A DNA stretch of 57,742 nt from a virus. The notes beneath the pieces are model-generated. The model was not told the origin of the DNA, did no database searches, and worked only from the letters and a program-made list of their open reading frames with translations. Location: IMG/VR virus record IMGVR_UViG_2616645027_000001; one strand, written 5' to 3'. Both the position numbers and the translations under genes were made by a program. Below are positions 5,997 through 21,853 of this stretch, piece after piece; the stretch's first letter is position 1, and the number at the start of each line of letters is the position of its first letter.

Positions 5997-6065
5997 TGCT
6001 TTACATACTCCCCTAACCGTGATACTTTATGAGTAGATTAAACAACTAATATTGAGAAAACAATT

Positions 6066-6521: not shown

Positions 6522-6802
6522 TGAGGGTAGAGGAGATCATGCAGTCGGTGGAAGGGATTGTCGGACCTAGCAGAAAGTCTTTGGAAAAAGATGCGATAAC
6601 CTACGCTTTGGGCACAAACCACTGGACTTTATTAATGGTGGCTGATAGAGGAGCTTACTTGGACCGGGAAGACGGGGTTGAAATATTTATGTTCGACGGT
6701 CGCCCGATGATAAGTTTTCGTAAACTCCTTACTGAAAATATCTCTGTTTATAAAATACAGCGTCATCATTATCAATATGAAGTACTGTATGAGGTAAAAT
6801 AA
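6521..6802 (+). CDS. Hypothetical protein (alternative start ATG 6539 behind AGGAG)
   Basis: Track ORF with ATGA coupling at 6521. Confidence 0.5.
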   Translation: MRVEEIMQSVEGIVGPSRKSLEKDAITYALGTNHWTLLMVADRGAYLDREDGVEIFMFDGRPMISFRKLLTENISVYKIQRHHYQYEVLYEVK

Positions 6803-6805
6803 TAC

Positions 6806-6834
6806 TTTACTTTTTAAAAAAGCTATGTTAAAAT
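6806..6834 (+). promoter_or_regulatory. Sigma70-like promoter TTTACT-17-TGtTAAAAT
   Basis: Read directly. It is followed by the ACAAGTTGCAT motif at 6853-6863 and the SD/ATG of the 6905 gene. Confidence 0.4.
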
Positions 6835-6904
6835 TTTTATACAAATTAAGGCACAAGTTGCATTTAGGAATTTCCCATCCTCACAAATAATAGGAGATAT
6901 TAAA

Positions 6905-7387
6905 ATGAGTAAGCAAGATTTTGAAGAAGAGTTAGCAGTAATAATAGAAACGGTTCGTGTAACGGCACTCGCGAATAAGACGGCGCAGGTTATGTCTAAA
7001 CATGTTCCTCATGCAATAGTTCTTAACTTCTTTTTTGATAACGGAAATGAAGGAGAGGCGATGACACAGCACTTGGATAGCGTGGGTAGCTCTGATGAGA
7101 TGTTAGAAGCATTTGTAGAGCTAGATAAGTTACCTAAAGAAGGGCCTTTTAGTGAGCCGCGTTTTGACTTTGATCTAAAGCAAATGCAGAAAGCGCTGCC
7201 AGTAATGGTCAGGTTTATGGATGCCTTTATCTATAACCTTGGCACCACAGCTGTAACTTTATCAAAATTACCAAATGAAATGGACAGGTTACTTTCAGAA
7301 AAGGATAAAGATAATATGTTTTCTCCGGCTAAATTACGATTTGAGGATGAAGGGCAGGAAGAGCAGGAAGAGCAGGTAATCCACTAA
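6905..7387 (+). CDS. Hypothetical protein with acidic C-terminus, 160 aa
   Basis: Track ORF. Its SD context ATAGGAGATATTAAA is identical to the one at 8603-8617. Confidence 0.55.
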   Translation: MSKQDFEEELAVIIETVRVTALANKTAQVMSKHVPHAIVLNFFFDNGNEGEAMTQHLDSVGSSDEMLEAFVELDKLPKEGPFSEPRFDFDLKQMQKALPVMVRFMDAFIYNLGTTAVTLSKLPNEMDRLLSEKDKDNMFSPAKLRFEDEGQEEQEEQVIH

Positions 7388-7433
7388 GATTTCATAAACC
7401 ATGGGCAATAGTACCTGATATTGGAGTAATAGA

Positions 7434-7571
7434 ATGGTTCTTTTTTTATGCGCAGCGCTAATGTGGTGCGAAATATTAGGCGTAACGAGTTTTGATGGTT
7501 TTGTAAAGTTTTTATGTTTGCTTATATTTTTTATTGAGGTGATTGATTGGTGGTGTGAGCTGCCCAACTAA
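7434..7571 (+). CDS. Small hydrophobic protein, 45 aa (below track cutoff)
   Basis: GGAG lies 7 nt upstream. Sequence is MVLFLCAALMWCEILGV...LCLLIFFIEVIDWW. Confidence 0.4.
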   Translation: MVLFLCAALMWCEILGVTSFDGFVKFLCLLIFFIEVIDWWCELPN

Positions 7572-7611
7572 ATAACCCAGCCTATTAAGGCTTTATGGAG
7601 GTATTGAAATT

Positions 7612-7887
7612 ATGAGTAAATTTGAGGAAATGTTTAACGAGCCATGCAGTTTTAGTAATGGTGAAATGCTATTGAGTGCTGTTAAATTTTCAAAAAGCGA
7701 AGCGGCTAAAATATTTTCCGAATACTTCGGGGAAGAAGTCGAAGAAAAATCCATAGGTTTTGATCGAGTAAGGTTCGGTTTCTTGCCCGAACATATTGAA
7801 GACAGAGGAATGATTGATAGCCCTAGCTGGTATAGCGGAGCTGGAAATGGTAAAGGCACAAAGCCGGTGTGGACGTGCTCAGATTAA
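7612..7887 (+). CDS. Hypothetical protein, 91 aa
   Basis: Track ORF with a GGAGGT SD. Confidence 0.5.
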   Translation: MSKFEEMFNEPCSFSNGEMLLSAVKFSKSEAAKIFSEYFGEEVEEKSIGFDRVRFGFLPEHIEDRGMIDSPSWYSGAGNGKGTKPVWTCSD

Positions 7888-7904
7888 CCCCCTAACCTAG
7901 AGAT

Positions 7905-8123
7905 ATGAATATTAACGATTTTTCAGATGAAGTGGAGTCGCTAGGTTTCACTTGGGATATTGGCTGGCGCGGCAGAGCTGATATTGAGGTGCGCATATGG
8001 AATTGGCCAAGTGTGATACATAGGCAGACCGTAAACAAGAGCAGCGACATTGATTGGGCTTGCGACATTGTTTTAAACAAGATTAGAGCGACCCAACCAA
8101 CTAACGTAGAGAGTGAGATATGA
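7905..8123 (+). CDS. Hypothetical protein, 72 aa
   Basis: Track ORF. Confidence 0.45.
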   Translation: MNINDFSDEVESLGFTWDIGWRGRADIEVRIWNWPSVIHRQTVNKSSDIDWACDIVLNKIRATQPTNVESEI

Positions 8124-8395
8124 ACAATTGGACATATAAAATACCCGAAGAATGCGACGAGTCTATCTATCAAGTACCGAAGCAAAGAAGAATACTTTCA
8201 GATGAATTGTTTGAATATAACCCCGATCAGCCTCAATATGCCGCTAGGTCTGCGGGGGAAAATGACTATCACAACCACGAAGGCTGGGACTCTGACTGGC
8301 CTAAAACATTTGAGCTGTTTTACAAAGGTGAGTCAAAGGGTTTATTCAGCGTAAACGCCGAGCCTGATATTCACATCAGTGCCACGAAAATCTAA
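8120..8395 (+). CDS. Hypothetical protein, 91 aa
   Basis: Track ORF with ATGA coupling. Confidence 0.5.
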   Translation: MNNWTYKIPEECDESIYQVPKQRRILSDELFEYNPDQPQYAARSAGENDYHNHEGWDSDWPKTFELFYKGESKGLFSVNAEPDIHISATKI

Positions 8396-8420
8396 ACCCA
8401 AAAAATAACGAGGTATAGCT

Positions 8421-8585
8421 ATGATAATTAATTTCGGAAAACATCAAGGCACAGACATAGAAGATTTGCCAGACAGTTACCTTCTTTGGCTAGCTGAAAA
8501 TTTGCAAGATGGGTTAATTCAATCTGAGGCAGAAAAGGAATACAACTTTAGGCAAGATAATAACACTATTGGAAATAACCCCTAG
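8421..8585 (+). CDS. DUF3820-like small protein, 54 aa (below track cutoff)
   Basis: GAGGT SD. FGKHQGTDIEDLPDSYLLWLAEN resembles the FGK.KG..i.e.P..Yl.Wl signature recalled from memory. Confidence 0.5.
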   Translation: MIINFGKHQGTDIEDLPDSYLLWLAENLQDGLIQSEAEKEYNFRQDNNTIGNNP

Positions 8586-8617
8586 CACTACTGTGCTGGA
8601 ACATAGGAGATATTAAA

Positions 8618-8950
8618 TTGAACAAGTCAGATATAGAGGATTTTTTCCGCATCGCATTTATTGCTGAAAAAGCAACCATTTTATCCGAGAAAGAAAAATC
8701 TAAATATAAAATTAGCTCTATTTTGGAAATAGAAACTAAAGACGGTCGCGGTACTTTCCATATTGCTAATGTTTTGGGTAGTGACATTAAACCCGATAAC
8801 CGTGTTGAGCGCATACGTGAGTTTGTTGAGACATATAGTCAGGGTGGGCCGTTCGCAACAATCGAAGGGGTTAATGCTTCTCGTCAGGTAGGCGAAGAAA
8901 TTTTACAATTCATAGACAAGCTGGAGAAAGAGAATGATAGACCAAATTAA
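8618..8950 (+). CDS. Hypothetical protein, 110 aa (TTG start)
   Basis: Track ORF. The TTG follows the same 15-nt SD context as gene 6905. Confidence 0.5.
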   Translation: MNKSDIEDFFRIAFIAEKATILSEKEKSKYKISSILEIETKDGRGTFHIANVLGSDIKPDNRVERIREFVETYSQGGPFATIEGVNASRQVGEEILQFIDKLEKENDRPN

Positions 8951-8997
8951 AACAGCTTTAGCCGATGGCGCTTGTGAGAGTGTTACTGAAATAAACT

Positions 8998-9234
8998 ATG
9001 AATAAAAACCCAAGTGTCAATAAAGTACAGATATTGGTCGAGGACCCCCACATCAGTCCCGAATTTAAGCGTTATAGAAAAGGGGATGTAGCAGAGGTAC
9101 TAGAGTACAAGTCGAGGTTAGCAGGTTCCCGGCAATGGAACTACAAACTAAGGGTTGCTGAAACTACCACTGATTCTGGCAGGGGGCTGTCGCGAATCAT
9201 CTATTTAAAAACAAAAGAGGTAAAGAAATTATGA
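8998..9234 (+). CDS. Hypothetical protein, 78 aa
   Basis: Track ORF. Confidence 0.5.
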   Translation: MNKNPSVNKVQILVEDPHISPEFKRYRKGDVAEVLEYKSRLAGSRQWNYKLRVAETTTDSGRGLSRIIYLKTKEVKKL

Positions 9235-9494
9235 GTTTAATACTTAGGGTTTTGGAGAGCGCGAGTGCTTTACCCAAAATGGAATTTATTTTGGACGCCG
9301 AAGATAGAGGACATTTTTTACCTCATGAGCTGAAAGGTGTGTCTAATACAGTAGGTGTCTTGGTGGAACAAGGGGACCCACTTGACATTGTTTCGATTTT
9401 GATTCTTATGTTAGATTTTATGCAAGACAATAATTTTTTGGCGACGGCTCATTGCTGTGCTATACTAAATGAGTTAGAAAAGCAGTACTATTAA
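9231..9494 (+). CDS. Hypothetical protein, 87 aa
   Basis: Track ORF with ATGA coupling. Confidence 0.5.
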   Translation: MSLILRVLESASALPKMEFILDAEDRGHFLPHELKGVSNTVGVLVEQGDPLDIVSILILMLDFMQDNNFLATAHCCAILNELEKQYY

Positions 9495-9514
9495 GACTAA
9501 TAAAAGGTAATATA

Positions 9515-9736
9515 ATGTCCTGTCCAAAAAGAAAAGAGAATGAAAGTTATGACGATTATCGTGCCCGTCGTAAGAAAGATGCTTTAGATACTAAGCGTGT
9601 ACTGCGTCCACGTCAGTTAGAAGAAGGTGTTTATATCGGTTCTCCTTCGCAGCACATAATAAACGGTATAAAGATTAACAAAGGAGTGCCTTATAGAAGG
9701 GGCCCCACCCACCCAAAAGTAGCGGAAGCTAAGTAG
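9515..9736 (+). CDS. Hypothetical basic protein, 73 aa
   Basis: Track ORF. Confidence 0.45.
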   Translation: MSCPKRKENESYDDYRARRKKDALDTKRVLRPRQLEEGVYIGSPSQHIINGIKINKGVPYRRGPTHPKVAEAK

Positions 9737-9737
9737 G

Positions 9738-11861
9738 GTGTTGTTTAAAGAATTCGACTCCTCGTTAGAAGCGGCGGAGTATTATATCGAACTAGGATGG
9801 CACCCGATAGCGGGCAGGCCCGGTGGTAAAATTCCAGCCAATAAAGACTGGAAGAAAACACCGTGGAAAGAGCAGGCGGAGTTGGGACGGTTCGGGGAAG
9901 GCCAAGCCAACAACATAGGTCTTTTATTGGGTAAGACTTGTGTTGATATTGACTTGGACTCCCCGAACGCTCGGCGCTATGCTCCTAAGCTCTTACCTAA
10001 AACACTTCAATTAGTAAAAGATGGTGTTACCACCCACTACTTATATAACATACCAACAGGCCATGAACCAATCCAAACCAAACAGTTTACGCTCCCGTCT
10101 AACAAGATGTCGTGCGAAATGCGCGGAACAGACGGATCAGGACACTCTCAGTACACAATGGTTGCGCCTTCACTGCACCCTTCTGGAGCTAAAGTGGAGC
10201 TTGTGGGTGACGTGCCCGACACTATTCAATCTGGTGAATGGCTCTATCGCCAAGTACGTTTGGTTGCGACATGTGATTTTATCACCCCTTATTGGTCAGA
10301 TGGCAGTCGTCACAACCTTGCACTCGGACTCGCTGGGTTCCTTGCCAAGAATCAATATGATCAGGAAACGATACTGGATGTTATTACCGCAATCGGAGAG
10401 ATCACAGGCGATACAGAGGACCGAAGTGCTCAAGTTAAGGCTACAATTAGAAAGCTTGATGGGGGAGGACGTGTGGCGGGAGAACAAACTCTTAGACAAC
10501 ATCTTCCAGCCGACGCTTTCGAAGCACTCAAGCGATGGTATTCAGATCAAGTAACCCGATTAGAAGATTATGTAATTGATGAAATAAACCTGCTACCTGT
10601 CGAACAGCGTCTGCCCTACCTAACCTATGTTATTGACGCGGATTGCTTTACAACAGATGGGCAGCACCTTAAGGCGAATCAGATACCTTTGATTTTCGGG
10701 CAGCATTTTCCTCAGAAAGAAATCAAGGCCCGGATGCTGGCGTGTAATAACGTGCGGAGCTTTGGTTACTTTCCTAACAAGGAACTGATCGTTAACTACG
10801 GAGTTGAGAAATACTGGAATAACTGGACACCCACAACACTTGTCCCTAAACAGGGTAATGTTGATCCGTTTTTAAAACATGTGAGTAGTTTGTGTGACGG
10901 CGAAGAACCTTCTATTAATTATTTATTAGGCATGATGGCACACGCTATACAAAAACCGGAACAAAAAGTTCGGCACATGCCTATTCTAATTGGTGGTCAG
11001 GGGTCGGGCAAAACGACGCTGTGTGATATATTGGGGAGATTGGTGGGGAACCACAATTATGCGTCTATCCCGGCCTCTGACATGCTAGGTAATTGGACAG
11101 GTATGTTAGAAAACAAACTTGTAGTGGCTATTGAAGAAATGCGTATCAGTCATTCCTCACAAACCAAAGCATTGGCTAACGCACTCAAAGATAAGGTGAC
11201 TAACGACAAGGTGACGGTTAAGAAGCGATACATCAATGAGTATCAGATTGATAACGTGACACGTTTCATTGGCCTGTCTAATCATCTAGTGCCTATCGAA
11301 ATAGAGCCCTCGGACAGACGCTATTATGTTATTGTATCTGCTACCGCGATTAAAAACTCCGGCGTGACCGTACACGACGCACGCAAAGATTGGATTGAGG
11401 GGTACCACGATTGGTTATACTTTGGTGGCGGACTTGAAAACATACTTGCGTATCTATTAGAGTACGACATTAGTAAATTTACTACTGACCAAGCACCTGT
11501 TCAGTCTGATCGACAAGCTAAGTTTAAAGCGGCCATTCAGGAAACCACTACAGCACCTGATCGCGCTGAAGAAACACAAGAGGCTTTTCAGCATCTTGCA
11601 ACCACCCACCCAATATGTGAGGTTTCTGCAATTAGGCGTCACATGGTTGAGTCACAGGGTATTAGTGGAATATCTAATAGGGCTATCAACACTGCCTTAG
11701 ATCATTATGGTGTGCGGCGGTTCGCTATCAACAAGAATCAAGCAGGTAAGCCCACCAAGCGTTACAGCTTGTGTGTGTTGTCCGATGATGAAATTTACCG
11801 TGATATGACGGAACGCCAGTTGCTTGAAGTGTACACTAAACATGTAACACCGGAGTTTTAA
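9738..11861 (+). CDS. Bifunctional primase-polymerase (Prim-Pol N-terminus) fused to SF3/D5-P4-type helicase, 707 aa
   Basis: The N-terminus YYIELGWHPIAGRPGGKIPANKDWKK is Prim-Pol-like. Walker A is GGQGSGKTT, Walker B-like is LVVAIEEM. GTG start. Confidence 0.85.
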   Translation: MLFKEFDSSLEAAEYYIELGWHPIAGRPGGKIPANKDWKKTPWKEQAELGRFGEGQANNIGLLLGKTCVDIDLDSPNARRYAPKLLPKTLQLVKDGVTTHYLYNIPTGHEPIQTKQFTLPSNKMSCEMRGTDGSGHSQYTMVAPSLHPSGAKVELVGDVPDTIQSGEWLYRQVRLVATCDFITPYWSDGSRHNLALGLAGFLAKNQYDQETILDVITAIGEITGDTEDRSAQVKATIRKLDGGGRVAGEQTLRQHLPADAFEALKRWYSDQVTRLEDYVIDEINLLPVEQRLPYLTYVIDADCFTTDGQHLKANQIPLIFGQHFPQKEIKARMLACNNVRSFGYFPNKELIVNYGVEKYWNNWTPTTLVPKQGNVDPFLKHVSSLCDGEEPSINYLLGMMAHAIQKPEQKVRHMPILIGGQGSGKTTLCDILGRLVGNHNYASIPASDMLGNWTGMLENKLVVAIEEMRISHSSQTKALANALKDKVTNDKVTVKKRYINEYQIDNVTRFIGLSNHLVPIEIEPSDRRYYVIVSATAIKNSGVTVHDARKDWIEGYHDWLYFGGGLENILAYLLEYDISKFTTDQAPVQSDRQAKFKAAIQETTTAPDRAEETQEAFQHLATTHPICEVSAIRRHMVESQGISGISNRAINTALDHYGVRRFAINKNQAGKPTKRYSLCVLSDDEIYRDMTERQLLEVYTKHVTPEF

Positions 11862-11865
11862 ACTG

Positions 11866-11874
11866 TGGTATAAT
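11866..11874 (+). promoter_or_regulatory. Extended -10 element TGgTATAAT (candidate internal promoter)
   Basis: Read directly in the 49-nt gap before 11911. There is no good -35. Confidence 0.3.
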
Positions 11875-11910
11875 GTTAGTATACTAAATCCGTACATATG
11901 GTGGTAAAAT

Positions 11911-12147
11911 ATGACAAAGAAAGTTCAAAAAAGAATTCGACAATTAGTTACGAAAGATAAAGAGAGTGAGAGTATTGCGTGGGATAAGGGGACACCTGAG
12001 TATGAAGTGCTGTGCGAGGCCAAACATTTTTATGTACGTAATCTAAAAACATGGTGTGATTTTTATGAGGTCAGTTATCAGATGCTGCTACGCAATTTAC
12101 GTGATGGTGATGGTAAGTATAAAGGCGTAGAAGTAGTTAAGTTATGA
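11911..12147 (+). CDS. Hypothetical protein, 78 aa
   Basis: Track ORF with a GGTGGT SD. Confidence 0.5.
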   Translation: MTKKVQKRIRQLVTKDKESESIAWDKGTPEYEVLCEAKHFYVRNLKTWCDFYEVSYQMLLRNLRDGDGKYKGVEVVKL

Positions 12148-12154
12148 TAGCCTA

Positions 12155-13606
12155 ATGACAGAACTTAAATTAAAAACCACTCCGATGGAGCACCAGCAAT
12201 GGAGCTACGACCATTTCAAAGGTAAGAAGTACTTCGGTCTATTCTGGGACCAAGGTACGGGTAAGACCAAAGCACTGCTTGATCACGCTTCTTACGCTTA
12301 CCACAAAGGGGCTATAGACTGCTTGATCGTGATTGCTCCGAACGGAGTACATGCTAACTGGGTAATAGAAGAGATACCTAAGCACGCCTCTGTTAACCAT
12401 ATCGCGATAACCTATTACAATGGTAAAGGTAAAAAGTGGGTGCGTGAGTTCGAAGAGATCGCTGATAAAGATAACCATCGGGATAAGTTAAAGATCATTT
12501 GTTTTCCCACCGAGGGCTTTTCTCGTGCTGTTAAGCAAATAGCGTACCTTGATTATCTACTTAAAACACATCAGTGTATGGGCGTAATCGATGAGGCTGA
12601 CGACTTTTCCAACCCCACTGCGAAGCGCACCAAGTATATGTTAAAGAAGGCATCGGAGTTTGTCGTGCGCCGTATTGCGACGGGTACTCCTATCGACAGT
12701 AAGCCTTTGGCGGCGTGGTCACAGTTGCAGTTCTTGAGTCCGTCAATACTCAAGCAAGATTATTATAGCTTTCGTGCGCGGTATTCGATCATGAAAGATA
12801 AGGTTGTTAAGGTGGGGGCCAAAGAGGTAGTCCAGAAGTTCCCGGTTGGTCATCGAAATCTGGACAAATTAGGGGAGATCATAAAGCAGCACACCGACAG
12901 AGTGTTGAAAGAAGACTGTATTGATCTGCCCGACAAGGTGTACCAAACTGTTCCACTTGAAATGGGACGGGACCAAACGCGGTACTACAATGATATGCTT
13001 GATCGAGCATTCTATGTACTAGAAGATAGTGATGATCTAGTGTACGCTAAGAACGCTCTCGACATGATGGGCAAACTGGCACGTATTACGGGGGGTTTCT
13101 CTGAGCAGGGGGTGCCTACTAAAGAGAACCCTAAACTTAAGTGGCTTGAAACCAACATAGATAAGTACACGGCTACCACTGATGTTATTATCTGGTGCCG
13201 ATACAGAGATGAAATAGATGCGGTAGTTAAAGCTATCGGTGAAGAAAGGTGTGCTGTTATACATGGTGGGGTGGTAGGTGAGGATCGAGAGAAAGAGATT
13301 TTTAGGTTTAAAGAAGATGAGAACTGTAATGTTTTGGTTACTAACAAATGTATGTCTCGCGGGCACACACTTGTCAACGCAACGTACAACATCTACTACA
13401 GCAACAGCTACTCACTTAGAGACCGAAGACAATCGGAAGATCGAACGCACCGTAAAGGTCAAGAGGCCACCTGTTTTTATCTAGACCTAGTGTGCATCGA
13501 TACAATCGATGAAGCCGTGCTACAGGCTCTTAAAGAAAAAAAAGATGTTAGTGATTTAGTACTTGGTGACCCTAAGAAAGCTTGGGTTGAAATGGTTAAA
13601 AAATAA
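12155..13606 (+). CDS. SNF2/DEAD-box-like (SF2) helicase, 483 aa
   Basis: Contains DQGTGKT (Walker A), VIDEADDF (DEAD box) and the C-terminal motif QSEDRTHRKGQ (helicase motif VI). Confidence 0.85.
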   Translation: MTELKLKTTPMEHQQWSYDHFKGKKYFGLFWDQGTGKTKALLDHASYAYHKGAIDCLIVIAPNGVHANWVIEEIPKHASVNHIAITYYNGKGKKWVREFEEIADKDNHRDKLKIICFPTEGFSRAVKQIAYLDYLLKTHQCMGVIDEADDFSNPTAKRTKYMLKKASEFVVRRIATGTPIDSKPLAAWSQLQFLSPSILKQDYYSFRARYSIMKDKVVKVGAKEVVQKFPVGHRNLDKLGEIIKQHTDRVLKEDCIDLPDKVYQTVPLEMGRDQTRYYNDMLDRAFYVLEDSDDLVYAKNALDMMGKLARITGGFSEQGVPTKENPKLKWLETNIDKYTATTDVIIWCRYRDEIDAVVKAIGEERCAVIHGGVVGEDREKEIFRFKEDENCNVLVTNKCMSRGHTLVNATYNIYYSNSYSLRDRRQSEDRTHRKGQEATCFYLDLVCIDTIDEAVLQALKEKKDVSDLVLGDPKKAWVEMVKK

Positions 13607-13618
13607 GAGAAGATTAGT

Positions 13619-14185
13619 ATGAGCGAAAAAAGTATATTAGATATGATGGAGGAGGACGTAGAGACTAGAGCTATGGACCTTCCGAGCTCCGACAAGGTAA
13701 CTGACCTGTCGGATTTAGTTGCACGACTGGACTACGCCGTACGCCAGCTAGGCGACCTAGAAGAGCAGGTTAAGTCGCAAAAGAAAGTGATCAAGAAGCT
13801 TTCGGAGCAAGACATACCTGATCTCTTCAAAGAGATGGGCAACATTAGGGCGTTCGAACTTGATGACGGGCGCAAGGTCAGTGTGTCAGAAGACTTTTCT
13901 ATTAGCGTGCGTAAAGCTGAGCAAGAAGAGTGTTTTAGTTGGCTCCGACTACACGGTAAAGAAGAGATTATTAAGCGTAAGCTTGCTGTCCAGTTTGATC
14001 GCGGAGAAGCCGCCGAGGCGCAGGCAGCAGCAACTTTACTGCTGGACAATGATTTGTCATTTAGTGATACTGAGTCAGTACATCCTCAGACACTGAAGGC
14101 ATCTATGAGGGGGATGATCGAAGAGGGGCTTACGCCACCGGACTCGTTCTCTTACTACCCCTACCAAAAAACTGTAATTAAATAA
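13619..14185 (+). CDS. Coiled-coil protein of the replication/recombination module, function unknown
   Basis: Track ORF placed between the helicase and polymerase genes. Confidence 0.55.
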   Translation: MSEKSILDMMEEDVETRAMDLPSSDKVTDLSDLVARLDYAVRQLGDLEEQVKSQKKVIKKLSEQDIPDLFKEMGNIRAFELDDGRKVSVSEDFSISVRKAEQEECFSWLRLHGKEEIIKRKLAVQFDRGEAAEAQAAATLLLDNDLSFSDTESVHPQTLKASMRGMIEEGLTPPDSFSYYPYQKTVIK

Positions 14186-14203
14186 AACTAGGATACCTTT
14201 ATA

Positions 14204-14968
14204 ATGAGTAAAAAAGAATTAGCAGAAAAACAAAACACTGAAGTTGCAGTGTTAGACTACGAAGCGTTGGCGGGAGAAGGTAATAACTTCGACCAAGACG
14301 ACTTAACGACACCGTTTCTAAAGTTGTTAGGTAAGTTGTCACCTGAATTAGATACGGTTGAAGGTGCTAAGAACGGCGCGTTCTACAACACAGGAACCCG
14401 TCAAGTTTTTGAGCAACCTGTGGTTGTAATTCCCGTAGCGTACGAGCGTCAGTTCCTTGAATGGGTGCCTCGTGATGCAGGCGGCGGTTTCAGGGGAGCC
14501 GTTGACAAGGACTACGCTTTGTCGCTAGAGCAGAACGAGAAGGGACAGTACCTGCACCCTAACGGTAACCTTGTGATTGATACACGATTACATTATGTGT
14601 TACAGGTGGTTGACGGCGACTTAGTGCCGTGTATTATCTCTCTGAAATCCACAGCTATTAAACGCTCTAAAAACTTTAACGCATTGATCTCCAACTTACG
14701 TTTACCGGGTAAAAACGGTAAGTTCAACCCACCTTGTTACAGCCATACATACATCGTATCAACGACGGATGAGCAAAAGGGGGAGGACAAGTGGAAGTTG
14801 CCGCAGTTTGAAATCGGTGCGCTGGTTGAGGACCCAGAAGTTTTTACCGCAGCTAAAGAGTTTCATGACATCGTTGTTGCGGGGGGTGCCAAGGTTGATT
14901 ATGCTCAGACCGAGGATAACGAGAAAACGGCACCAGATAACTATAAGGACGAACCAAACGAGTTCTAA
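14204..14968 (+). CDS. Replication-module protein, function unknown, 254 aa
   Basis: Track ORF. I could not assign a diagnostic motif. Confidence 0.55.
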   Translation: MSKKELAEKQNTEVAVLDYEALAGEGNNFDQDDLTTPFLKLLGKLSPELDTVEGAKNGAFYNTGTRQVFEQPVVVIPVAYERQFLEWVPRDAGGGFRGAVDKDYALSLEQNEKGQYLHPNGNLVIDTRLHYVLQVVDGDLVPCIISLKSTAIKRSKNFNALISNLRLPGKNGKFNPPCYSHTYIVSTTDEQKGEDKWKLPQFEIGALVEDPEVFTAAKEFHDIVVAGGAKVDYAQTEDNEKTAPDNYKDEPNEF

Positions 14969-14998
14969 CTTAGACCAAGGGTTCTCCATACCTAAAGT

Positions 14999-15030
14999 CG
15001 TCCTCCATGCAGGGAGGGCGCATTTATTTT
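14999..15030 (+). terminator. Intrinsic terminator/attenuator candidate before the polymerase gene
   Basis: Stem CGTCCTCC / GGAGGGCG (8 bp, including one G-U), 6-nt loop, then CATTTATTTT. Confidence 0.4.
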
Positions 15031-15053
15031 AACGGTCAATTGCGGATACCTTC

Positions 15054-16955
15054 ATGATATTTAAACAAGGCGTGGGCACAGAGCTGTCCACACAAGAAAC
15101 GCTTCCCGATCTACACGGGGCTACCAGATTGTGTGTTGACATAGAGACCTACGATCCTAATTTAAAAAAGACGGGACCTAGTGTACGAACAGGAGGATAT
15201 GTTGCGGGGCTGGGCGTGGGTGCGGAGTTCGAATCTGGTGAGGTGGTGGGGTACTATATCCCTGTAGAACATGAAGGCTATGAGGATGAATGCGAGAACA
15301 AAGAACAGGTAATGGGGTGGCTACAGGACCTGCTCGACAATCCCAACAGAGAAGTGTTGTTTGCAAATGCTTTATATGATCTTGATTACCTGTCTCACCA
15401 ACATCAGGTAAAGGTTCTGGGAAAGATCATTGATGTTCAAGTTGCAGAGCCCTTAATAGATGAGAACGCTAAGTCTTACGCGTTAGGTTCTTTGGCCGAC
15501 AGGTATCTAGGAGAGTCTAAAGTAGATGATGATCTTTATGAATACTGTGCTTCCCAGTTTGGCGGAAGAGCAACAAGAACACAGGCCGGTAACATTTATA
15601 GATGCCCCCCTCACATAGTAGCCAAGTATGGTATCGGTGATGTAACGCTGCCTATCAGAATCTGGGAACGACAACGCGACGAATTATCTAAGCAAGGGTT
15701 ATGGGACGTATTTGATCTAGAGACCGCACTGGTTCCTATGCTTTTGGATATGAAAGCGCGAGGTGTTAGGGTTAACATGGCTAAAGTGGATCAGGTTCAG
15801 TCCCGCGCGGCCCAACGCATGATATCCCTACAGAAAGAGATAGACGAGATGGCGGGAATGCCGATAGCTGTGTATGAGTCCAGCTGTCTTGAAGAAGCGT
15901 ACTTAAAGTTGCACTTGCCCTATGCTCGTACCGAAGCGGGTAATCCGTCTTTTACCGCGGCCGTATTAGAAAATTCTGAGTTTGGCTCTAAAGTTAACGA
16001 GCTTAAGAAAGCAACCAAGATGCATGACGTATTTCTTGATCGCTACATTAATAACTATGTGGTGCGTGATCGGATACACCCGGCTTTTAACCAGCTACGT
16101 GGTGACGAATATGGTACGGTCACAGGACGCTTCTCCAGTAGTTTGCCAAACCTGCAGAACATACCAAACGATAAGCTGATGCGGTCTCTGTACGTGCCCG
16201 AGGATGGCGAAGACTGGTACAAGTTAGATTACTCTTCTGTAGAGTACCGCCTAGCCTTGCACTATGCTAAGGGACCTGCTGCCGATGCGCTAAGAGCGAA
16301 CTACGATGAAGATATCAATTTTGATGCCCATCAATTGACGGCTAACGATATTGGCATAACCCGTAAGCAGGCTAAGACTATTAACTTTGGCCTGATCTAT
16401 GGTATGGGAGTAGGTAAACTTTCAGCATCACTGGGGGTCAATTTAGCTGACGGGAAACAAATTCTGAATCGCTTCCACGACAACGTACCGTTCATGAAAG
16501 AGCTGTTGAATATGGCGATGCGTCGAGCCGAGGAGAAGGGGTTTGTACACACCTTGGCCGGGCGGCGCAGACGGTTCGATCTTTATGAGCCAAGAAAATG
16601 GCAGAAGGGTAAGTTCGCTAAGCCCCATGCTGAAGCGCTACATGAGTACGGCCCTAGCATCAAGCGTGCTTTCACATACAAAGCACTCAATGCCGTTATT
16701 CAGGGGTCCGCCGCTGATGTCATGAAGAAAGCGATGGTTGATATCTATCAATCAGGTGTTTGTGACGTGGTGGGAGTGCCCATGTTAACAGTTCACGATG
16801 AATTAGACTTCAGCGCGAACCAAAGTAACGAACATATCGAAGCGATGCGCGAGGTAAAACATCTTATGGAAACAGCTTTTACAACAAGAGTGCCTTTAAT
16901 TGTGGACGCCGAACGTGGTCCAAGTTGGGGAGAAATTGAGGAGATTAGTTTATGA
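15054..16955 (+). CDS. Family A DNA polymerase with 3'-5' exonuclease domain, 633 aa
   Basis: Exo motifs are DIET, NALYDLDYL and YGIGDV. Pol motif A is DYSSVEYRLA, motif B RKQAKTINFGLIYGMG, motif C TVHDEL. Confidence 0.9.
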   Translation: MIFKQGVGTELSTQETLPDLHGATRLCVDIETYDPNLKKTGPSVRTGGYVAGLGVGAEFESGEVVGYYIPVEHEGYEDECENKEQVMGWLQDLLDNPNREVLFANALYDLDYLSHQHQVKVLGKIIDVQVAEPLIDENAKSYALGSLADRYLGESKVDDDLYEYCASQFGGRATRTQAGNIYRCPPHIVAKYGIGDVTLPIRIWERQRDELSKQGLWDVFDLETALVPMLLDMKARGVRVNMAKVDQVQSRAAQRMISLQKEIDEMAGMPIAVYESSCLEEAYLKLHLPYARTEAGNPSFTAAVLENSEFGSKVNELKKATKMHDVFLDRYINNYVVRDRIHPAFNQLRGDEYGTVTGRFSSSLPNLQNIPNDKLMRSLYVPEDGEDWYKLDYSSVEYRLALHYAKGPAADALRANYDEDINFDAHQLTANDIGITRKQAKTINFGLIYGMGVGKLSASLGVNLADGKQILNRFHDNVPFMKELLNMAMRRAEEKGFVHTLAGRRRRFDLYEPRKWQKGKFAKPHAEALHEYGPSIKRAFTYKALNAVIQGSAADVMKKAMVDIYQSGVCDVVGVPMLTVHDELDFSANQSNEHIEAMREVKHLMETAFTTRVPLIVDAERGPSWGEIEEISL

Positions 16956-17389
16956 GCGAAGCTAAATTCAAAAAGCAAGTACACAAAGCCTTTGAAAAGT
17001 ACGCTAAAGATAACTACTTACCTTTGCACTGGCAGTTACATGAAGACTCTCTTAGTGTGGGTATTCCTGATATAAGCTTTGGGCTAGGAGGGATAAATGG
17101 CTGGATAGAGGCTAAATGGGATAAGAAAATGCCCCGTGTAAACACAATTTATAACCCTCACTTTCAGCCCTACCAAGAGGCTTGGTTAGTGGCGCGAGGC
17201 GCGGCGGGAGGGAACTGTTACTTGTTACATGGGTTTGAAGATGGGTTTATGTTGTTTAATCACAAAGGACTTATGGGCCGCCGACCTAATACCCCCGCTG
17301 GTGTATTTCATGAAAGTGTAGGGGAAGGGGTCTTCTGTGCTGCAAGACAGTTCTCTTCTGAGAATGTTAACAAAATCTTTAATCTTTAA
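16952..17389 (+). CDS. VRR-NUC-like PD-(D/E)xK nuclease, 145 aa
   Basis: GIPDISFGLGGINGWIEAKW fits the G.PD...E.K core. ATGA coupling to the polymerase gene. Confidence 0.5.
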   Translation: MSEAKFKKQVHKAFEKYAKDNYLPLHWQLHEDSLSVGIPDISFGLGGINGWIEAKWDKKMPRVNTIYNPHFQPYQEAWLVARGAAGGNCYLLHGFEDGFMLFNHKGLMGRRPNTPAGVFHESVGEGVFCAARQFSSENVNKIFNL

Positions 17390-17484: not shown

Positions 17485-17571
17485 ATGGAACAAAGAATAG
17501 AAACAATCCTCACAAACACATTAATCGTAACATTTTTGGTGTTGCCTTTCGTGGCGCTACTAGGGCTTTAA
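17485..17571 (+). CDS. Hydrophobic peptide, 28 aa (below track cutoff)
   Basis: AGGAG lies 7 nt upstream. Sequence is MEQRIETILTNTLIVTFLVLPFVALLGL. Confidence 0.3.
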   Translation: MEQRIETILTNTLIVTFLVLPFVALLGL

Positions 17572-17586
17572 TACCCTAGTAGTTTT
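17558..17586 (+). terminator. Intrinsic terminator ending the plus-strand arm
   Basis: Stem TACTAGGG / CCCTAGTA (8 bp), 8-nt loop, then GTTTT. It sits at the convergence with the late operon. Confidence 0.45.
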
Positions 17587-19141
17587 ACACATAGTCAAAT
17601 ATAGTTTTGCCGTTAATGTGATTAACCAAGGCGCGTTTACCATTTGTATATATTAAGCAGTCTGTTAGCATCCACGTACTGTACCCTCTAGCATAAGGCA
17701 TCCGATCGGTACTGGTACCCACTTGCCAACACCCTTTTTCAATACACGGCGTGTGGCTGTGTCCTATCACAACCTTAAATGTTGTTTTAGCGAATCCTTT
17801 TGCGCTACCACGGGCACCGTTAGTGCCTACATCTCCATGTTGAGAGGTGTCAATAGTGGCTATCATCTTTGGATCATTGCGATCCAAGAACTCATAAGGA
17901 ACTGAGCACCCCCACTCATTAAAACAGGTCTCTAATGCCGATTGGTTCGTACCGTACATATGTGAGGATAACCAACCATGAAATTTAGCGTTGGCAGGGT
18001 CTTTATGCACATTGTATTTATTGTGCCATTGGTCTAGATGATCATTATGGTTAGAACCAACAATGTAGTTTAGTGTGCCTTGGCCCAACCGTTCCAGATA
18101 ATCGATCGACATACGTACTTCATCTTCAATGAACACGTCACCTTTCAATGCCATTTCTACTCGTTCACGAACGGTGTTGTGGTGCGACCCTATGTGTTGG
18201 TCATGCAGGTCATGCCAAACTTGTATTTCTGGTCGTACTCTGGCGTTAATTCTGTGTTTTGACGCCGATATCTCAGCGATTTCATGCCATACATGGCTGT
18301 CACCATGTACGATATTCGCGACAGCGGGCTCCTGTGACAGGCCATTTTCGGTCCAGTACTCATCCCCGAAGCAAAAACCGTTACCGTCCCACCCCAGCTG
18401 TATGTAATGAAACGCGCCGCGAATAACCTTAATGTAAACGGCGTAAAGGGTATGGTAGAACTTAGCCTTGCCTCCGGCATCGGTAGCCGAGTACTTCGCC
18501 CGGTTGCAAGAACCTGTGGTCATCATAACCTTTGGCGTTTTATTTTTAGGAGTGCCCACCAACTCCATAGCCAATTGTGGGTGCCCATAAATTGCACTTT
18601 TTTGCCCAGATAAGGCTTGCTTACCGGACAAGGGATTAACAGCCGTTGCATTAAGTCTGTGAGAAGAGATCACTAACTTGTTACCTAAGTGTAGGTCCTT
18701 GGTAAGTGCATACGGTTCTATTTCGGTAGGCCAGTTAAGTCCTTTCTCCTTCTGTTTCCTGATCGCATTTGGATTAGCATACCTGACAGGTACTACAAGT
18801 AACTGTCCCTCTCGATGATCAGAGAATTTTTTTAATGCTTGTAGGAAAGGCTTGATCAACGGAGAATCGTTAGTGCAGGAGGTGACAATAAAATCTTTAC
18901 TCTTTCGAGCAGATTTTAAATCCAAAGTGGAGGGGCACTGGATGTCCCAGAAGGATGAAAGCTCTGGGTTGTGTGGTGGGAGGGTAATGTCAAGCAATTC
19001 TTCAACTGCTCTTCTATTTCTATTTTGTTGTCTTGGGTCTTTTGTTATGAAGCCAGCCTTCTTCATGGCATCGGCTAGTGATTTTGATTCCGGCCAAACT
19101 GCAACGAGTTTTTTGGCCTTCTTTAAAGAAACGGTTGCCAT
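17585..19141 (-). CDS. Metallophosphoesterase-fold protein (calcineurin-like; phosphatase or Mre11/SbcD-type nuclease), 518 aa
   Basis: The C-terminal half has, in order, HGDSH, GSNHNDH (GNHD/E-like), HGD and GHSH. The N-terminal roughly 270 aa are unassigned. Confidence 0.45.
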   Translation of the reverse strand: MATVSLKKAKKLVAVWPESKSLADAMKKAGFITKDPRQQNRNRRAVEELLDITLPPHNPELSSFWDIQCPSTLDLKSARKSKDFIVTSCTNDSPLIKPFLQALKKFSDHREGQLLVVPVRYANPNAIRKQKEKGLNWPTEIEPYALTKDLHLGNKLVISSHRLNATAVNPLSGKQALSGQKSAIYGHPQLAMELVGTPKNKTPKVMMTTGSCNRAKYSATDAGGKAKFYHTLYAVYIKVIRGAFHYIQLGWDGNGFCFGDEYWTENGLSQEPAVANIVHGDSHVWHEIAEISASKHRINARVRPEIQVWHDLHDQHIGSHHNTVRERVEMALKGDVFIEDEVRMSIDYLERLGQGTLNYIVGSNHNDHLDQWHNKYNVHKDPANAKFHGWLSSHMYGTNQSALETCFNEWGCSVPYEFLDRNDPKMIATIDTSQHGDVGTNGARGSAKGFAKTTFKVVIGHSHTPCIEKGCWQVGTSTDRMPYARGYSTWMLTDCLIYTNGKRALVNHINGKTIFDYV

Positions 19142-19146
19142 ATAGG

Positions 19147-19191
19147 GCTCCTATTTTAAGACAAGACTTTATCTTACCATAAAATAGGAGC
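19147..19191 (-). promoter_or_regulatory. 12-bp perfect inverted repeat sequestering the SD of the 518-aa gene
   Basis: GCTCCTATTTTA (19147-19158) pairs with TAAAATAGGAGC (19180-19191). In the mRNA the AGGAG SD lies in the 3' arm, 7 nt before the ATG at 19141. Confidence 0.5.
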
Positions 19192-19196
19192 TGGTG

Positions 19197-20732
19197 CTAC
19201 TTACATTTTATGAACTTTACCGCTGTTCTCTCTTTACCGTTTGCTAATGTGCCGACCCTTGCTTGAGTGTGCGCCATAACACCAATAACGTCGCCCGGCA
19301 TGTATTCTATTTTATGTTTTCCTACGGTCTTGTGCTCGATGCTTGAGCAGCCTATCCCTTTCCTGATTTGGCCTGGCCGAAAATGATCAACAGGCCACTG
19401 TATTACTTTACCACCGCTAATAAATCTATAACTTAAATTGCCGTTAACTATAACATCCCTTCCGTTAGCGTCTTTAGAGTGAAACTTACCTTTCCAAACG
19501 TTCTTTTTAGTGTGATCTAAAATAGTTTTATGGGAGCTAATTTCAGCGCGAGTTATTTTTGATGTAACAGGCCAGTTGTTCGGGTTTGCTCCAAGCCCAA
19601 CAATAACTGGCTTACCTCGATAGTCGGCCGCTGTGTAAAGCTTGCGAGTTGGCTTTGTTGGGGGCTTTGGCTTAACAGGCAACGGCTTTAAATCACGCAT
19701 GATGTTAAAACCAGCCTTAGCCCGATTCATTATTGCGGTATAGTTTTTATATCCTTTGTAGGTTGCAGGTGAGCCGCTTAGCGCCCTATCGAAATTCATA
19801 AAGTCGGATATTCTGAGCGGAATATTGTGCTTACGCCCCTTTCTGCTTTGCAACAAATTCAATTCAGCGGCATGTTTCATTATCGCAGGGCTGAATACAG
19901 CATCCCACGCCCTAATGCTACGGTTATCTTTTATAAGCTTATTTTCATCGCCATTACCAGCAACGGGCATTTCGTCGATAAGAACACGATACTCTGGAGA
20001 ACCAATATTGATAATCTTAATCTTACCTTTAAGGTACTTAGCAGCCTCTCTAGCGCCTCCGCTGCGGAGTTCGTTGCTAGTGCCGAACAAAGTTCCTACT
20101 AGTGTTATGTTAGCCTTATTAGCACCTTGTTTAACGGCCTGAGCAACATCTCCAGCAGCGCCACCCATAGCAATTGTAAGCTTTCCTTTTTTAGACTCGC
20201 GTACAATGAAGTCAGATAGTTCACTTCGTCCTGAATGATCGATCCTATGTCCGTATAAGACAGGAATATCTAAACCAGATAGAGCAACAATTTTCCCAGC
20301 AACGTGATTGTCCAGCCCTTTGGTAGTAGATGTAACACCAATAGCCATTGGTAATTGATTCTTATGTAAACCAAGAGCCAAAGTAAATAGTAAATCTTGA
20401 GGTCCGTTTGCATCACCATGAAACCCAGCGCTTAGGCTAGTAACCATGTCATCAATGTAGATGATGCGCCCAGTGTTGAAGTTTGTTGGAGGAGGTTTAG
20501 AGTTATCACAATCAACGCCATAGTAAGGAGGTCGCTTTTCAGCCTTTCCGCTAGTTACGTAATGCTCCCAAGCGCCAACACCAGCCTTTGCAACATCATC
20601 ATTTAGTATTAAGTAGGCAGGCGCATCAAAACACGCAGGCGGGTTACCAATTCTAGGCTTTTTATCGTCGTCATCATCACACCCAACAAGTGTAACGGCG
20701 ATTAAAAAAGGAAGTATAAACTTTTTAAACAT
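19197..20732 (-). CDS. Large lipoprotein, 511 aa, Asp at +2 (inner-membrane retention type)
   Basis: ATG 20732 follows GGTGGT. MFKKFILPFLIAVTLVGCDDDDD carries lipobox LVGC. It starts 4 nt after the o-spanin stop. A weak nucleoside-hydrolase-like segment and a Pro/Lys linker PVKPKPPTKP are present. Confidence 0.6.
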   Translation of the reverse strand: MFKKFILPFLIAVTLVGCDDDDDKKPRIGNPPACFDAPAYLILNDDVAKAGVGAWEHYVTSGKAEKRPPYYGVDCDNSKPPPTNFNTGRIIYIDDMVTSLSAGFHGDANGPQDLLFTLALGLHKNQLPMAIGVTSTTKGLDNHVAGKIVALSGLDIPVLYGHRIDHSGRSELSDFIVRESKKGKLTIAMGGAAGDVAQAVKQGANKANITLVGTLFGTSNELRSGGAREAAKYLKGKIKIINIGSPEYRVLIDEMPVAGNGDENKLIKDNRSIRAWDAVFSPAIMKHAAELNLLQSRKGRKHNIPLRISDFMNFDRALSGSPATYKGYKNYTAIMNRAKAGFNIMRDLKPLPVKPKPPTKPTRKLYTAADYRGKPVIVGLGANPNNWPVTSKITRAEISSHKTILDHTKKNVWKGKFHSKDANGRDVIVNGNLSYRFISGGKVIQWPVDHFRPGQIRKGIGCSSIEHKTVGKHKIEYMPGDVIGVMAHTQARVGTLANGKERTAVKFIKCK

Positions 20733-20736
20733 AATA

Positions 20737-20988
20737 TTACCACCACTTAGTATTTGATTTCTTAACATATTCCTCTACTTTTTCAGCATGTGCTTCTAAA
20801 GCATCTCTATCGGCTTCGCATTGTGCAAGCGCTAACGTTACTTGATCACGACTAGGGTCAAGGGAAAGAGGAATATGTGTTACAGTAATAGGTTTCTGAA
20901 AGGCTTCAGGTATCGTTGTCGCGCAACCGCTTACGACGCTCAAAATAAGTACCGTCTTTAATAGCTTGCTTAGATTCGCGTAGTTCAT
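20737..20988 (-). CDS. o-spanin (outer-membrane lipoprotein), 83 aa
   Basis: MNYANLSKLLKTVLILSVVSGC carries lipobox VSGC. The start lies inside the i-spanin gene in another frame. Confidence 0.65.
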   Translation of the reverse strand: MNYANLSKLLKTVLILSVVSGCATTIPEAFQKPITVTHIPLSLDPSRDQVTLALAQCEADRDALEAHAEKVEEYVKKSNTKWW

Positions 20989-21193
20989 TTTCGTGCTCCA
21001 ACTTAATCTGGTTTGTTCGTCGAATATCGGCCTTGTCAACCTCGGCCTGTTTTTTAACCCTACGAATCTGCTTCCAAGTACTTATCTTACCCCTTAGAAA
21101 AAAGATAAGTAGGCCTACCATACCAACCACTACATATACTAGCTCAGAACTACCGCCGAGATACCCCGACAGCAGTTCTTTGATTGCATCCAT
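20906..21193 (-). CDS. i-spanin, 95 aa
   Basis: Has an N-terminal TM span (LVYVVVGMVGLLIFFL) followed by a charged coiled coil. Overlapped architecture with the o-spanin. Confidence 0.65.
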   Translation of the reverse strand: MDAIKELLSGYLGGSSELVYVVVGMVGLLIFFLRGKISTWKQIRRVKKQAEVDKADIRRTNQIKLEHENELRESKQAIKDGTYFERRKRLRDNDT

Positions 21194-21424: not shown

Positions 21425-21853
21425 TTAGGCGTTCGCCCAATTAGTTGCTTCGGCAAGGCGTCTACGCACCAAACCCTTGATCCGGGCTCCCCCGCTTTTA
21501 TTCCATCGAGTAATTTCTTGAGGTACCTGAAGATATTTACCTTCATTAAGTACCCGCAGTAAGGTAGACCTAGCAAACTGAGAGGCACCTATATTATACA
21601 CTAAGCTAACCAGCATGTCAAACTGACGTTGGTTTATTGTTGCGGTAACAAGTTGCTCCACCGCTTTCTCCGCCCACCGCACATCCTCTTTAAAAAAGGA
21701 CTTAGCCTGTTCCTCAGTAATACATTGATCCGGGCCAGCAGTTTTAGTGTGTCCATATCCGATTGTCCAAACACCCTTAACATCTTGATAAGAGTTAAGT
21801 TCTAGTCCTTCCCACTTTTGTAAAAAGTCACGTCCTTCAGCACTAAGTATCAT
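21425..21853 (-). CDS. Endolysin, GH24 (T4-type) lysozyme, 142 aa
   Basis: KWEGLELNSYQDVKGVWTIGYGHT matches the E-8x-D-5x-T catalytic signature. Confidence 0.85.
   Translation of the reverse strand: MILSAEGRDFLQKWEGLELNSYQDVKGVWTIGYGHTKTAGPDQCITEEQAKSFFKEDVRWAEKAVEQLVTATINQRQFDMLVSLVYNIGASQFARSTLLRVLNEGKYLQVPQEITRWNKSGGARIKGLVRRRLAEATNWANA

Follow-up and report, generated by a model that had tools for sequence, protein, structure and literature searches.

The virus record IMGVR_UViG_2616645027_000001 of IMG/VR (57,742 nucleotides (nt), about 58 kb, the whole of which is called the window below) reads as a siphovirus-like phage genome, in which two large genes follow the spanin genes at the end of the late strand. 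The first encodes a 511-amino-acid (aa) protein whose core is predicted to have the nucleoside hydrolase (NH) fold (NH-like; 19197-20732, minus strand), and the second a 518-aa metallophosphoesterase related to protein A1 of phage T5 (A1-like; 17585-19141, minus strand). Taken together, our results are probably best explained by two independent accessory genes, an A1-family phosphoesterase and an envelope-directed, NH-fold accessory lysis or release factor, a reading that we hold with moderate confidence.

Homology of the A1-like Protein to T5 A1

Judged by homology, the A1-like protein is a new, full-length member of the T5 A1 family, found in an unusual context. It matches PHROG 1745 ('DNA transfer protein') with an E-value of 7.5e-102, residues 71-513 aligning with profile positions 76-539 of 542; only its N-terminal ~70 aa are variable and unrelated, and the remainder matches the family throughout. 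By tblastn, homologues are found in 1132 cultured-phage records, most of them annotated as A1 or DNA transfer protein; in over 1000 records, the alignment covers 82-86% of the query. The best cultured-phage match is that of Xanthomonas phage XacN1 (34.8% identity), and T5-like phages show 27-29% identity over 85% of the length.

An initial annotation of the window had mentioned T5 A1-type nucleases among the proteins that share the metallophosphoesterase fold, correctly as it turns out, but had concluded that neither large protein could be placed and had left the N-terminal half of this one unassigned. The A1-like protein can now be placed, and its N-terminal half is part of the conserved architecture of the family. 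The metallophosphoesterase motifs pointed out by that annotation are present in order (GDSH 280-283, GSNHNDH 362-368, HGD 435-437 and GHSH 460-463), together with HD at 310-311. When the protein is aligned with four A1 proteins, those of Epseptimavirus GreteKellenberger (T5-like), XacN1, RcCronus and elemoA (Flavobacterium podovirus), residues G280, D281, H283, H310, D311, S363, N364, H365, H435, G460, H461 and H463 are invariant in the five sequences and no loss of a catalytic residue is found. Motifs of the N-terminal half are also conserved in this alignment, namely Y121, PTAxxPLSG (165-173), GHP and TTG..Y..G.K..H. Searches of Pfam, NCBIfam and PADLOC with the A1-like protein gave no match and phmmer against the PDB found no solved relative (the matches of its N-terminus to uS9 were spurious), so that the T5 A1 family is easily overlooked.

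The A1-like protein thus resembles T5 A1, a hallmark of Demerecviridae, in its full-length homology (27-35% identity to the T5-like and XacN1 proteins), in sharing all five metallophosphoesterase motifs and the N-terminal-half motifs, and in its similar size. It differs from T5 A1 by its unrelated N-terminus and by belonging to a distinct subfamily, with 63-79% identity among the window and three other loci, L016, L019 (IMGVR_UViG_3300002038_000009) and L021. The surroundings of its gene are different too: it is the last gene on the late/lysis strand of a ~58-kb siphovirus-like genome, outside any T5-type pre-early, first-step-transfer region and without adjoining A2 or dmp. Such a pre-early context is seen in locus L004, and A1 homologues from outside Demerecviridae are also without it.

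In T5, A1 is a predicted metallo-phosphatase that is essential for infection and toxic when expressed alone, and genetic evidence has shown that it is both required and sufficient for the host chromosome to be degraded in vivo; it is pleiotropic, as it additionally acts in second-step DNA transfer and RNA polymerase binding (bioRxiv 10.64898/2026.04.02.716235). By analogy, the A1-like protein could be a binuclear metallophosphoesterase that degrades, or triggers the degradation of, the host chromosome during takeover.

The A1-like gene might moreover be a self-contained cassette, equipped with a leader and an extended -10-like promoter element of its own. The 55-nt spacer that separates it from the NH-like gene contains a 45-nt RNA hairpin (19147-19191, minus strand; dG -22.7 kcal/mol, z -4.3), composed of a 12-bp outer stem (CUCCUAUUUUA/UAAAAUAGGAG) and an 8-bp inner stem, whose 3' arm pairs the whole AGGAG Shine-Dalgarno sequence (19152-19148) of the A1-like gene. 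As no T-run follows, the hairpin was rejected as an intrinsic terminator. The extended -10-like element TGGTAAGAT (19171-19179, minus strand) precedes the A1-like ATG by 29 nt; it falls between the two arms of the outer stem and partly coincides with the 5' arm of the inner one. In L019, TGATAGAAT aligns with it, and the ~45 nt before the ATG (TGnTAnnAT ... GGAG ... ATATGGC) are conserved between the window and L019 despite their different upstream genes. On read-through late transcripts, the hairpin would mask the ribosome-binding site of the A1-like gene, and transcripts starting from TGGTAAGAT would lack the 5' arm and leave this site exposed.

An own promoter-like element would also suit a role other than host DNA destruction, such as that of a nuclease for defence or exclusion, made from that promoter, or that of a DNA-entry or transcription-switch factor. 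The pleiotropy of T5 A1, which controls second-step transfer and binds RNA polymerase (10.64898/2026.04.02.716235), points in the same direction, as does the fact that the gene adjoins an integrase in L016, a typical accessory or defence slot. Constitutive expression from a prophage would nevertheless be incompatible with a protein that, in T5, is toxic on its own and degrades the chromosome; there is no PADLOC match, and in the window phage the replication module is full and no integrase was seen among the open reading frames checked. We consider such another role unlikely and favour host DNA destruction.

The NH-like Gene Follows the o-Spanin in Divergent Phages

From its first ATG, the NH-like open reading frame extends over 19197-20768 (minus strand; 523 aa), and an internal ATG at 20732 gives the 511-aa form, which begins with MFKKFILPFLIAVTLVGC followed by DDDDDKK; both starts give an identical mature lipoprotein. 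The o-spanin TAA is at 20737-20739, and the ATG at 20732 is located 4 nt downstream, after an SD-like GGTGG (GGTGGTAATATTATG). The N-terminus (MFKK-FILPFLIAVT-LVGC) has a positively charged n-region, a hydrophobic h-region and a lipobox, LVGC, that fits the consensus [LVI][ASTVI][GAS]C (PMC6139136). The two open reading frames, the lipobox with CDDDDD and the 4-nt gap, as described in the initial annotation, are thus all present. The mature protein has Asp at +2 to +6, in contrast to the o-spanin of the window, which has Ala at +2. In Enterobacteria, Asp at +2 leads to inner-membrane retention (Lol avoidance). The NH-like lipoprotein may be retained at the inner membrane in this way, if the enterobacterial rule extends to its host.

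The position of the gene is highly consistent. In 11 of the 11 phage loci examined (the window, L001, L006, L007, L008, L016, L018, L021 (L020/L021), L022, L024 and L025), the NH-like gene is located directly 3' of the o-spanin stop codon or overlaps it, and the o-spanin in each case has a lipobox and is itself overlapped with the i-spanin. The NH-like proteins of these loci are only 22-48% identical and the endolysins are of different types (lysozyme, M15 peptidase, DUF5675 or SLT); the linkage to spanins is therefore either old or recurrent. One of the loci, L008, found in 17 contigs, is temperate and myovirus-like. Among the other relatives, P0025, which has a signal peptide, is encoded in an apparently non-phage context (L012/L013). 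Pattern-based locus scans for the family in IMG/VR, JGI metagenomes and GTDB genomes were empty; they also missed L021, which encodes a relative, and are thus insensitive. In L016 (1728-1976), L017 (1383-1673) and L024 (2200-2439), a small gene of 79-96 aa (motif KYG.G ... GH.E.S ... DG.TH) stands right after the NH-like gene; two of the three match each other by BLASTP (E 5e-7), and it is absent from the window.

The family is so far undescribed, both in the libraries that we used and in the literature searched. The NH-like protein has no match in cultured phages (tblastn; INPHARED, 50,697 records), and none beyond noise in Pfam, PHROG, NCBIfam and PADLOC: a bacterial microcompartment (BMC) domain at E 0.03 is a chance hit, and a BSAP-5i match at E 0.024 falls on the signal peptide. 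A structural or tail protein finds no support either. A word-indexed search yielded one real homologue, P0002 (40% identity), with the single sequence as with a 37-sequence profile, probably because words of a repeat motif swamped the results, and an exhaustive hidden Markov model search was therefore needed. Carried out with a two-sequence profile against 1.84 billion representatives, it gave 475 hits, including 60 at E<=1e-10 and 22 library proteins at E<=1e-30, and revealed ~40 relatives sharing the core domain (representatives at 50% clustering). Chance can account neither for the 60 hits at E<=1e-10 nor for the PHROG 1745 match of the A1-like protein.

Three modules were resolved by this search. 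The first is a Cys-flanked motif of ~40 aa (residues ~30-76; window 20505-20645, minus strand), with the consensus FDxxxYLxxNxDVAxAGxxxWxHYxxxGxxExR, which is covered by no Pfam model; it is present in up to three copies in secreted NH-like relatives and is repeated 4-15 times in giant methyltransferase/GT2/GT4 proteins such as P0041 (2198 aa, 15 copies). The second is the core domain (residues ~85-350), followed by a Pro/Lys linker (~347-365). The third is a C-terminal beta domain of ~135 aa (~375-511), close to the distinct domain of roughly 140 aa that had been proposed to follow the linker; alone, it matches many unrelated proteins, in which it is fused to PKD, Big_1, fn3, TIG and PhoD_N domains.

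A Nucleoside Hydrolase Fold with an Altered Pocket

The central domain of the NH-like protein is predicted to have the nucleoside hydrolase fold, of which the initial annotation had seen a weak resemblance in this segment. An AlphaFold model built from the 37-sequence alignment reached a pLDDT of 83.5, as opposed to 33, and thus unusable, with a 2-sequence alignment. When this model is compared with the PDB by Foldseek, the 39 hits at E<=1e-3 are all nucleoside hydrolases, Sde_0182 or XopQ (4p5f); they include 8qnd, 8oic, 5tsq, YeiK/RihB and RihA, with TM-scores on the target of 0.4-0.53, and Sde_0182 (2yhg) ranks second (E 2.2e-5). Profile-profile alignment by hhalign with RihB/RihC agrees (E 2.3e-4), and the top four PDB profile hits, although weak (E 0.15-1.1), are all nucleoside hydrolases. 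At the level of Pfam, PF01156 (IU_nuc_hydro) gives no hit at E<=1 in the window protein and sub-threshold hits in 3 of 37 relatives (best E 0.0045). Nothing at E<=1e-3 was found by Foldseek among the BFVD viral structures.

The pocket is only partly that of a nucleoside hydrolase. In the hhalign register, the DxDxxxDD fingerprint, D9-C-D11-P-G-H-D15-D16 in RihB, corresponds to D107-A-N109-G-P-Q-D113-L114, i.e., DxNxxxDL. The Asp residues at fingerprint positions 1 (RihB D9, D107) and 7 (D15, D113) are kept, as is RihB N158 (N220). The general base D11 is replaced by N109, an Asn that is nearly invariant in the family, and the Ca2+ ligand D16 is lost (L114). Two further pairs are seen only in a relaxed, low-confidence extension of the alignment (mact 0.05): the leaving-group His, H239, opposite S309, and the third Ca2+ Asp, D240, opposite the invariant D310. 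The protein thus appears to keep the fold and part of the sugar/metal pocket, and to have lost the residues that make a nucleoside hydrolase a nucleosidase. Because the catalytic fingerprint is not conserved, a canonical nucleoside hydrolase was ruled out and true nucleoside hydrolase activity seems unlikely.

Compared with the Ca2+-dependent nucleoside hydrolases (IU-NH; E. coli RihA/RihB/RihC), the protein shares, besides the fold, the helix after beta-1 and the IPVxxG and GGP..D..A segments, all in register. It differs from them not only in the base, one Ca2+ ligand and, apparently, the leaving-group residue but also in a 12-residue insertion after beta-1, a membrane anchor and additional N- and C-terminal modules, and in being encoded by a phage. 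The situation of its pocket would be, by analogy, that described for XopQ and Sde_0182, two NH-fold proteins that bind ADP-ribose or furanose and do not hydrolyse nucleosides (PMC8910321). Sde_0182, from Saccharophagus degradans, may further resemble the NH-like protein in its two-domain layout, an NH-like domain joined to a beta-sandwich-type domain, and it is itself extracytoplasmic and tied to carbohydrate metabolism; both Sde_0182 and XopQ/HopQ1 have lost canonical catalytic residues, and furanose or ribosyl binding has been proposed for them (PMC8910321). The NH-like protein is nevertheless distinct from both, since it shows no PF07632 hit or kinship at the sequence level, has another domain order and other partner domains, and belongs to a phage lysis cassette with an inner-membrane anchor.

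Membrane Topology and Possible Roles of the NH-like Family

The anchors of the family are of several kinds. Export signals are found in the window protein and P0032 (lipoboxes) and in P0024, P0025, P0028, P0034 and P0039 (signal peptides), and N-in/C-out anchors in P0004 and P0007; the window protein and eight relatives are thus equipped with export signals or N-in anchors. In ~19 other relatives (e.g., P0002, P0003, P0006, P0009, P0010 and P0013; loci L001, L006 and L016), an uncharged N-terminus and a transmembrane (TM) helix are followed by a Lys/Arg-rich stretch, and the positive-inside rule therefore predicts a cytoplasmic domain. The i-spanin of the same phage obeys this rule in the opposite sense in L001 and L006. 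Either these NH-like anchors are exceptions to the positive-inside rule, or the family acts on both sides of the inner membrane; it is tempting to speculate that the flipping of a lipid-linked substrate would permit the latter.

The anchors that predict a cytoplasmic domain, together with the presence of XopQ among the structural matches and the missing general base and apparently missing His, as in inactive NH-like proteins (PMC8910321), would be in line with a non-catalytic ligand sensor, or with a cytoplasmic enzyme directed, like XopQ, at nucleotides such as ADP-ribose, NAD-derived compounds or cyclic nucleotides, which would adjust the time of lysis or act against a signal of host defence. 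This seems highly unlikely to us, given the export signals or N-in/C-out anchors of the window protein and eight relatives, the extracytoplasmic nature of the fusion partners of the C-terminal domain, the lack of a PADLOC match, and a late-operon position that is poor for anti-defence.

A second alternative to the accessory lysis or release factor that we favour is an accessory envelope gene with a role like that of T5 Llp or lambda Bor, i.e., superinfection exclusion or the masking or modification of a receptor, which would protect the infected cell or keep progeny off debris. Phage lipoproteins at operon ends are typically exclusion or conversion genes, the presence of the NH-like gene varies among close relatives (it is absent at this site in L019), two of its loci, L008 and L016, are temperate, with a recombinase or integrase adjoining, and a predicted inner-membrane tether, a probable sugar-binding fold and a binding-type C-terminal domain would all be appropriate. 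However, the gene is strictly coupled in translation to the o-spanin gene, or overlaps it, in 11/11 loci, and no separate promoter was found. Late co-expression with spanins would fit exclusion poorly, and the size and conserved polar pocket of the protein are more enzyme-like than Llp or Bor. We therefore regard this role as rather unlikely.

Are the Two Genes a Functional Module?

The initial annotation had treated the two genes as a module and had proposed to look for their co-occurrence in other phages. They do occur together, A1-like after NH-like, in three lineages: the window, L016, where an 82-aa gene stands between them (A1-like 63% identical to that of the window), and L020/L021 (65%). 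However, each gene also occurs alone. The NH-like gene, tied to spanins in all 11 phage loci, has no A1 neighbour in L001, L008, L018, L022 and L025; its downstream neighbours are small genes in L001 and convergent, unrelated genes in the other four, and the downstream genes of L017 (partial) and L024 could not be identified as A1-like. Conversely, none of the 1132 cultured-phage records with an A1 homologue has an NH-like homologue detectable by tblastn.

The closest A1-like gene, that of L019 (79%), directly follows an o-spanin, without any NH-like gene in the 15.5-kb locus. L019 and the window are also similar in PolA (82% identity) and VRR-NUC (62%), but no match to the NH-like, spanin, endolysin and tail proteins of the window is detectable in L019. 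As L019 shares the replication and A1-like genes and not the lysis and tail genes, a mosaic junction must be located in the 55-nt spacer between NH-like and A1-like, and the latter may have been co-inherited with the convergent replication module (PolA, VRR-NUC) rather than with the lysis genes. L019 has a different lysis region (4947-6311), in which two lipoproteins of 211 and 239 aa precede the spanins and replace the endolysin/NH-like arrangement of the window. The A1-linked NH-like proteins, for their part, belong to different subclades: that of the window shares only 27-31% identity with its counterparts in L016 and L021, far below the 63-79% among the A1-like proteins, and is closest to those of the A1-less locus L001 (40%) and of L007 (43%).

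In a true module, the cytoplasmic A1-like and the periplasmic NH-like protein would act in sequence on breakdown products of nucleic acids or on nucleotide signals, e.g., turning host DNA or RNA into nucleotides, these into nucleosides that are exported, and the nucleosides into base and sugar. Adjacency in three lineages despite NH-like proteins so divergent would be in favour of it, as would the excretion of host DNA breakdown products by T5 (10.64898/2026.04.02.716235) and the binding of ribosyl groups by the NH fold (PMC8910321). We find it improbable in view of the separate occurrences of both genes, the contrast in identities with the mosaic break between the genes, the replaced catalytic base and, apparently, leaving-group residue, and the A1-like gene's own leader. 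The adjacency looks mostly like that of two cassettes in the same operon-end slot, positional and not functional, which again favours two independent accessory genes.

The Lysis Cassette and Other Features of the Window

The plus-strand genes (1-17389) form a replication module with primase, helicase, PolA and a VRR-NUC-like nuclease. The minus-strand genes run from ~56 kb to 17585 and comprise packaging, head and tail genes, then the lysis cassette, the NH-like gene and the A1-like gene. The large terminase shows 38% identity to lambda-like terminases; by megablast, the region matched no cultured phage, and no near-identical relative was found among them.

The lysis cassette consists, in this order, of genes for a 99-aa membrane/coiled-coil protein, an endolysin of the lysozyme family (21425-21853, minus strand; PHROG 7, E 1.5e-53), a 67-aa protein with two TM helices, and the spanin pair. 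The i-spanin candidate (95 aa; 20906-21193, minus strand) has one TM helix and a charged helical domain, and is overlapped by the o-spanin open reading frame (20737-21039, minus strand; lipobox VSGC), whose start is probably at 20988 (MNYANLSKLLKTVLILSVVSGC). In this i-spanin candidate, the N-terminus carries a net negative charge and seven Lys/Arg residues come right after the TM helix, the reverse of the charge pattern expected of an N-in/C-out i-spanin.

A perfect sigma-70 consensus promoter (TTGACA-17-TATAAT, 12/12) is present inside the endolysin open reading frame (21593-21621, minus strand) and points at the 67-aa gene, the spanins, NH-like and A1-like. Only one other 12/12 match exists in the window (54352-54380, minus strand), in an intergenic, AT-rich early region of small genes; both are on the coding strand, and ~0.02 such matches would be expected by chance (own estimate). 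From the putative promoter at 21593-21621, the host RNA polymerase could transcribe the genes for the spanins and for the NH-like and A1-like proteins without recourse to the late promoter.

Between the convergent transcription units there is a 10-bp, G+C-rich hairpin (17557-17582), followed by TTTT on the plus strand and located, on the minus strand, 3 nt past the A1-like stop codon. An unannotated 28-aa hydrophobic open reading frame (MEQRIETILTNTLIVTFLVLPFVALLGL; 17485-17571, plus strand), with the ribosome-binding site AGGAG, enters this hairpin with its 3' end, and the two are probably the last gene and the terminator of the plus-strand unit. In the early region, a 248-aa protein (55501-56247, minus strand) matches a dATP/dGTP pyrophosphohydrolase (MazG-like) PHROG (E 4.8e-19); it could be a further nucleotide-metabolism gene relevant to host takeover.

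A Possible Additional Lysis or Release Function

Lysis by phages of Gram-negative bacteria is taught as three steps, those of holin, endolysin and spanin. We propose that the NH-like family would be a recurrent last member of their lysis cassettes, with its translation coupled to that of the o-spanin and with an inner-membrane tether that is a Lol-avoidance lipid anchor in the window and a TM helix elsewhere. With its remodelled pocket and a C-terminal domain found elsewhere on secreted PKD/Ig/fn3 proteins, it would assist lysis or release as an accessory factor by binding, or possibly cleaving, a ribosyl- or furanosyl-type sugar near the inner membrane. Such an envelope-directed role is our best guess and the most likely one for this protein, whose gene would share with that of the A1-like protein the 3' end of the late minus-strand transcription unit.

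Several points weigh against this view of the two genes. The slot after the spanins is a classic site for unrelated accessory genes, and adjacency alone is no proof of a lysis role. The cytoplasmic domain predicted for ~19 relatives conflicts with the periplasmic one predicted for the NH-like protein of the window. The promoter elements are consensus matches only, and a functional link keeps some plausibility, given the three loci with adjacent NH-like and A1-like genes. Finally, the location of the A1-like gene at the end of the late operon, away from A2 and dmp, implies that its timing and role may differ from those in T5, and the nuclease activity of purified T5 A1 has yet to be demonstrated in vitro (10.64898/2026.04.02.716235).

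In position at the lysis cassette or its end, envelope location and accessory nature, the NH-like protein is comparable to mycobacteriophage LysB, Mu gp25 releasin, T5 Llp and lambda Bor. It is homologous to none of them, is much larger, and has a predicted fold that is not known from any lysis protein; the profile and structure searches suggested by the initial annotation have placed the A1-like protein and revealed the NH fold, and have shown no homology of the NH-like protein to known lysis proteins. In a bolder version, to which we give only a small chance, the NH-fold family would be an unrecognised class of Gram-negative phage lysis enzymes, tethered to the inner membrane and co-translated with spanins, that cleave a ribosyl or furanosyl linkage in an envelope component (e.g., a lipid-linked glycan, or a wall or outer-membrane polymer) and are needed for efficient disruption or release in marine or environmental hosts.

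What emerges is a conserved, enzyme-like gene, predicted to be membrane-anchored, whose translation is coupled to that of the o-spanin in no fewer than 11 divergent loci and which is without a match in Pfam, PHROGs, BFVD and ~50,000 cultured phage genomes. The NH-like protein is thereby a concrete candidate, open to testing, for a further function in lysis or release, and its family would extend the non-nucleosidase uses of the nucleoside hydrolase fold to viruses. As for the A1-like gene, it suggests that the phosphoesterase with which T5 destroys host DNA is passed among unrelated siphovirus-like genomes as a small, self-contained cassette, away from the context of two-step injection, where it could help to separate the nuclease role of T5 A1 from its DNA-transfer role.

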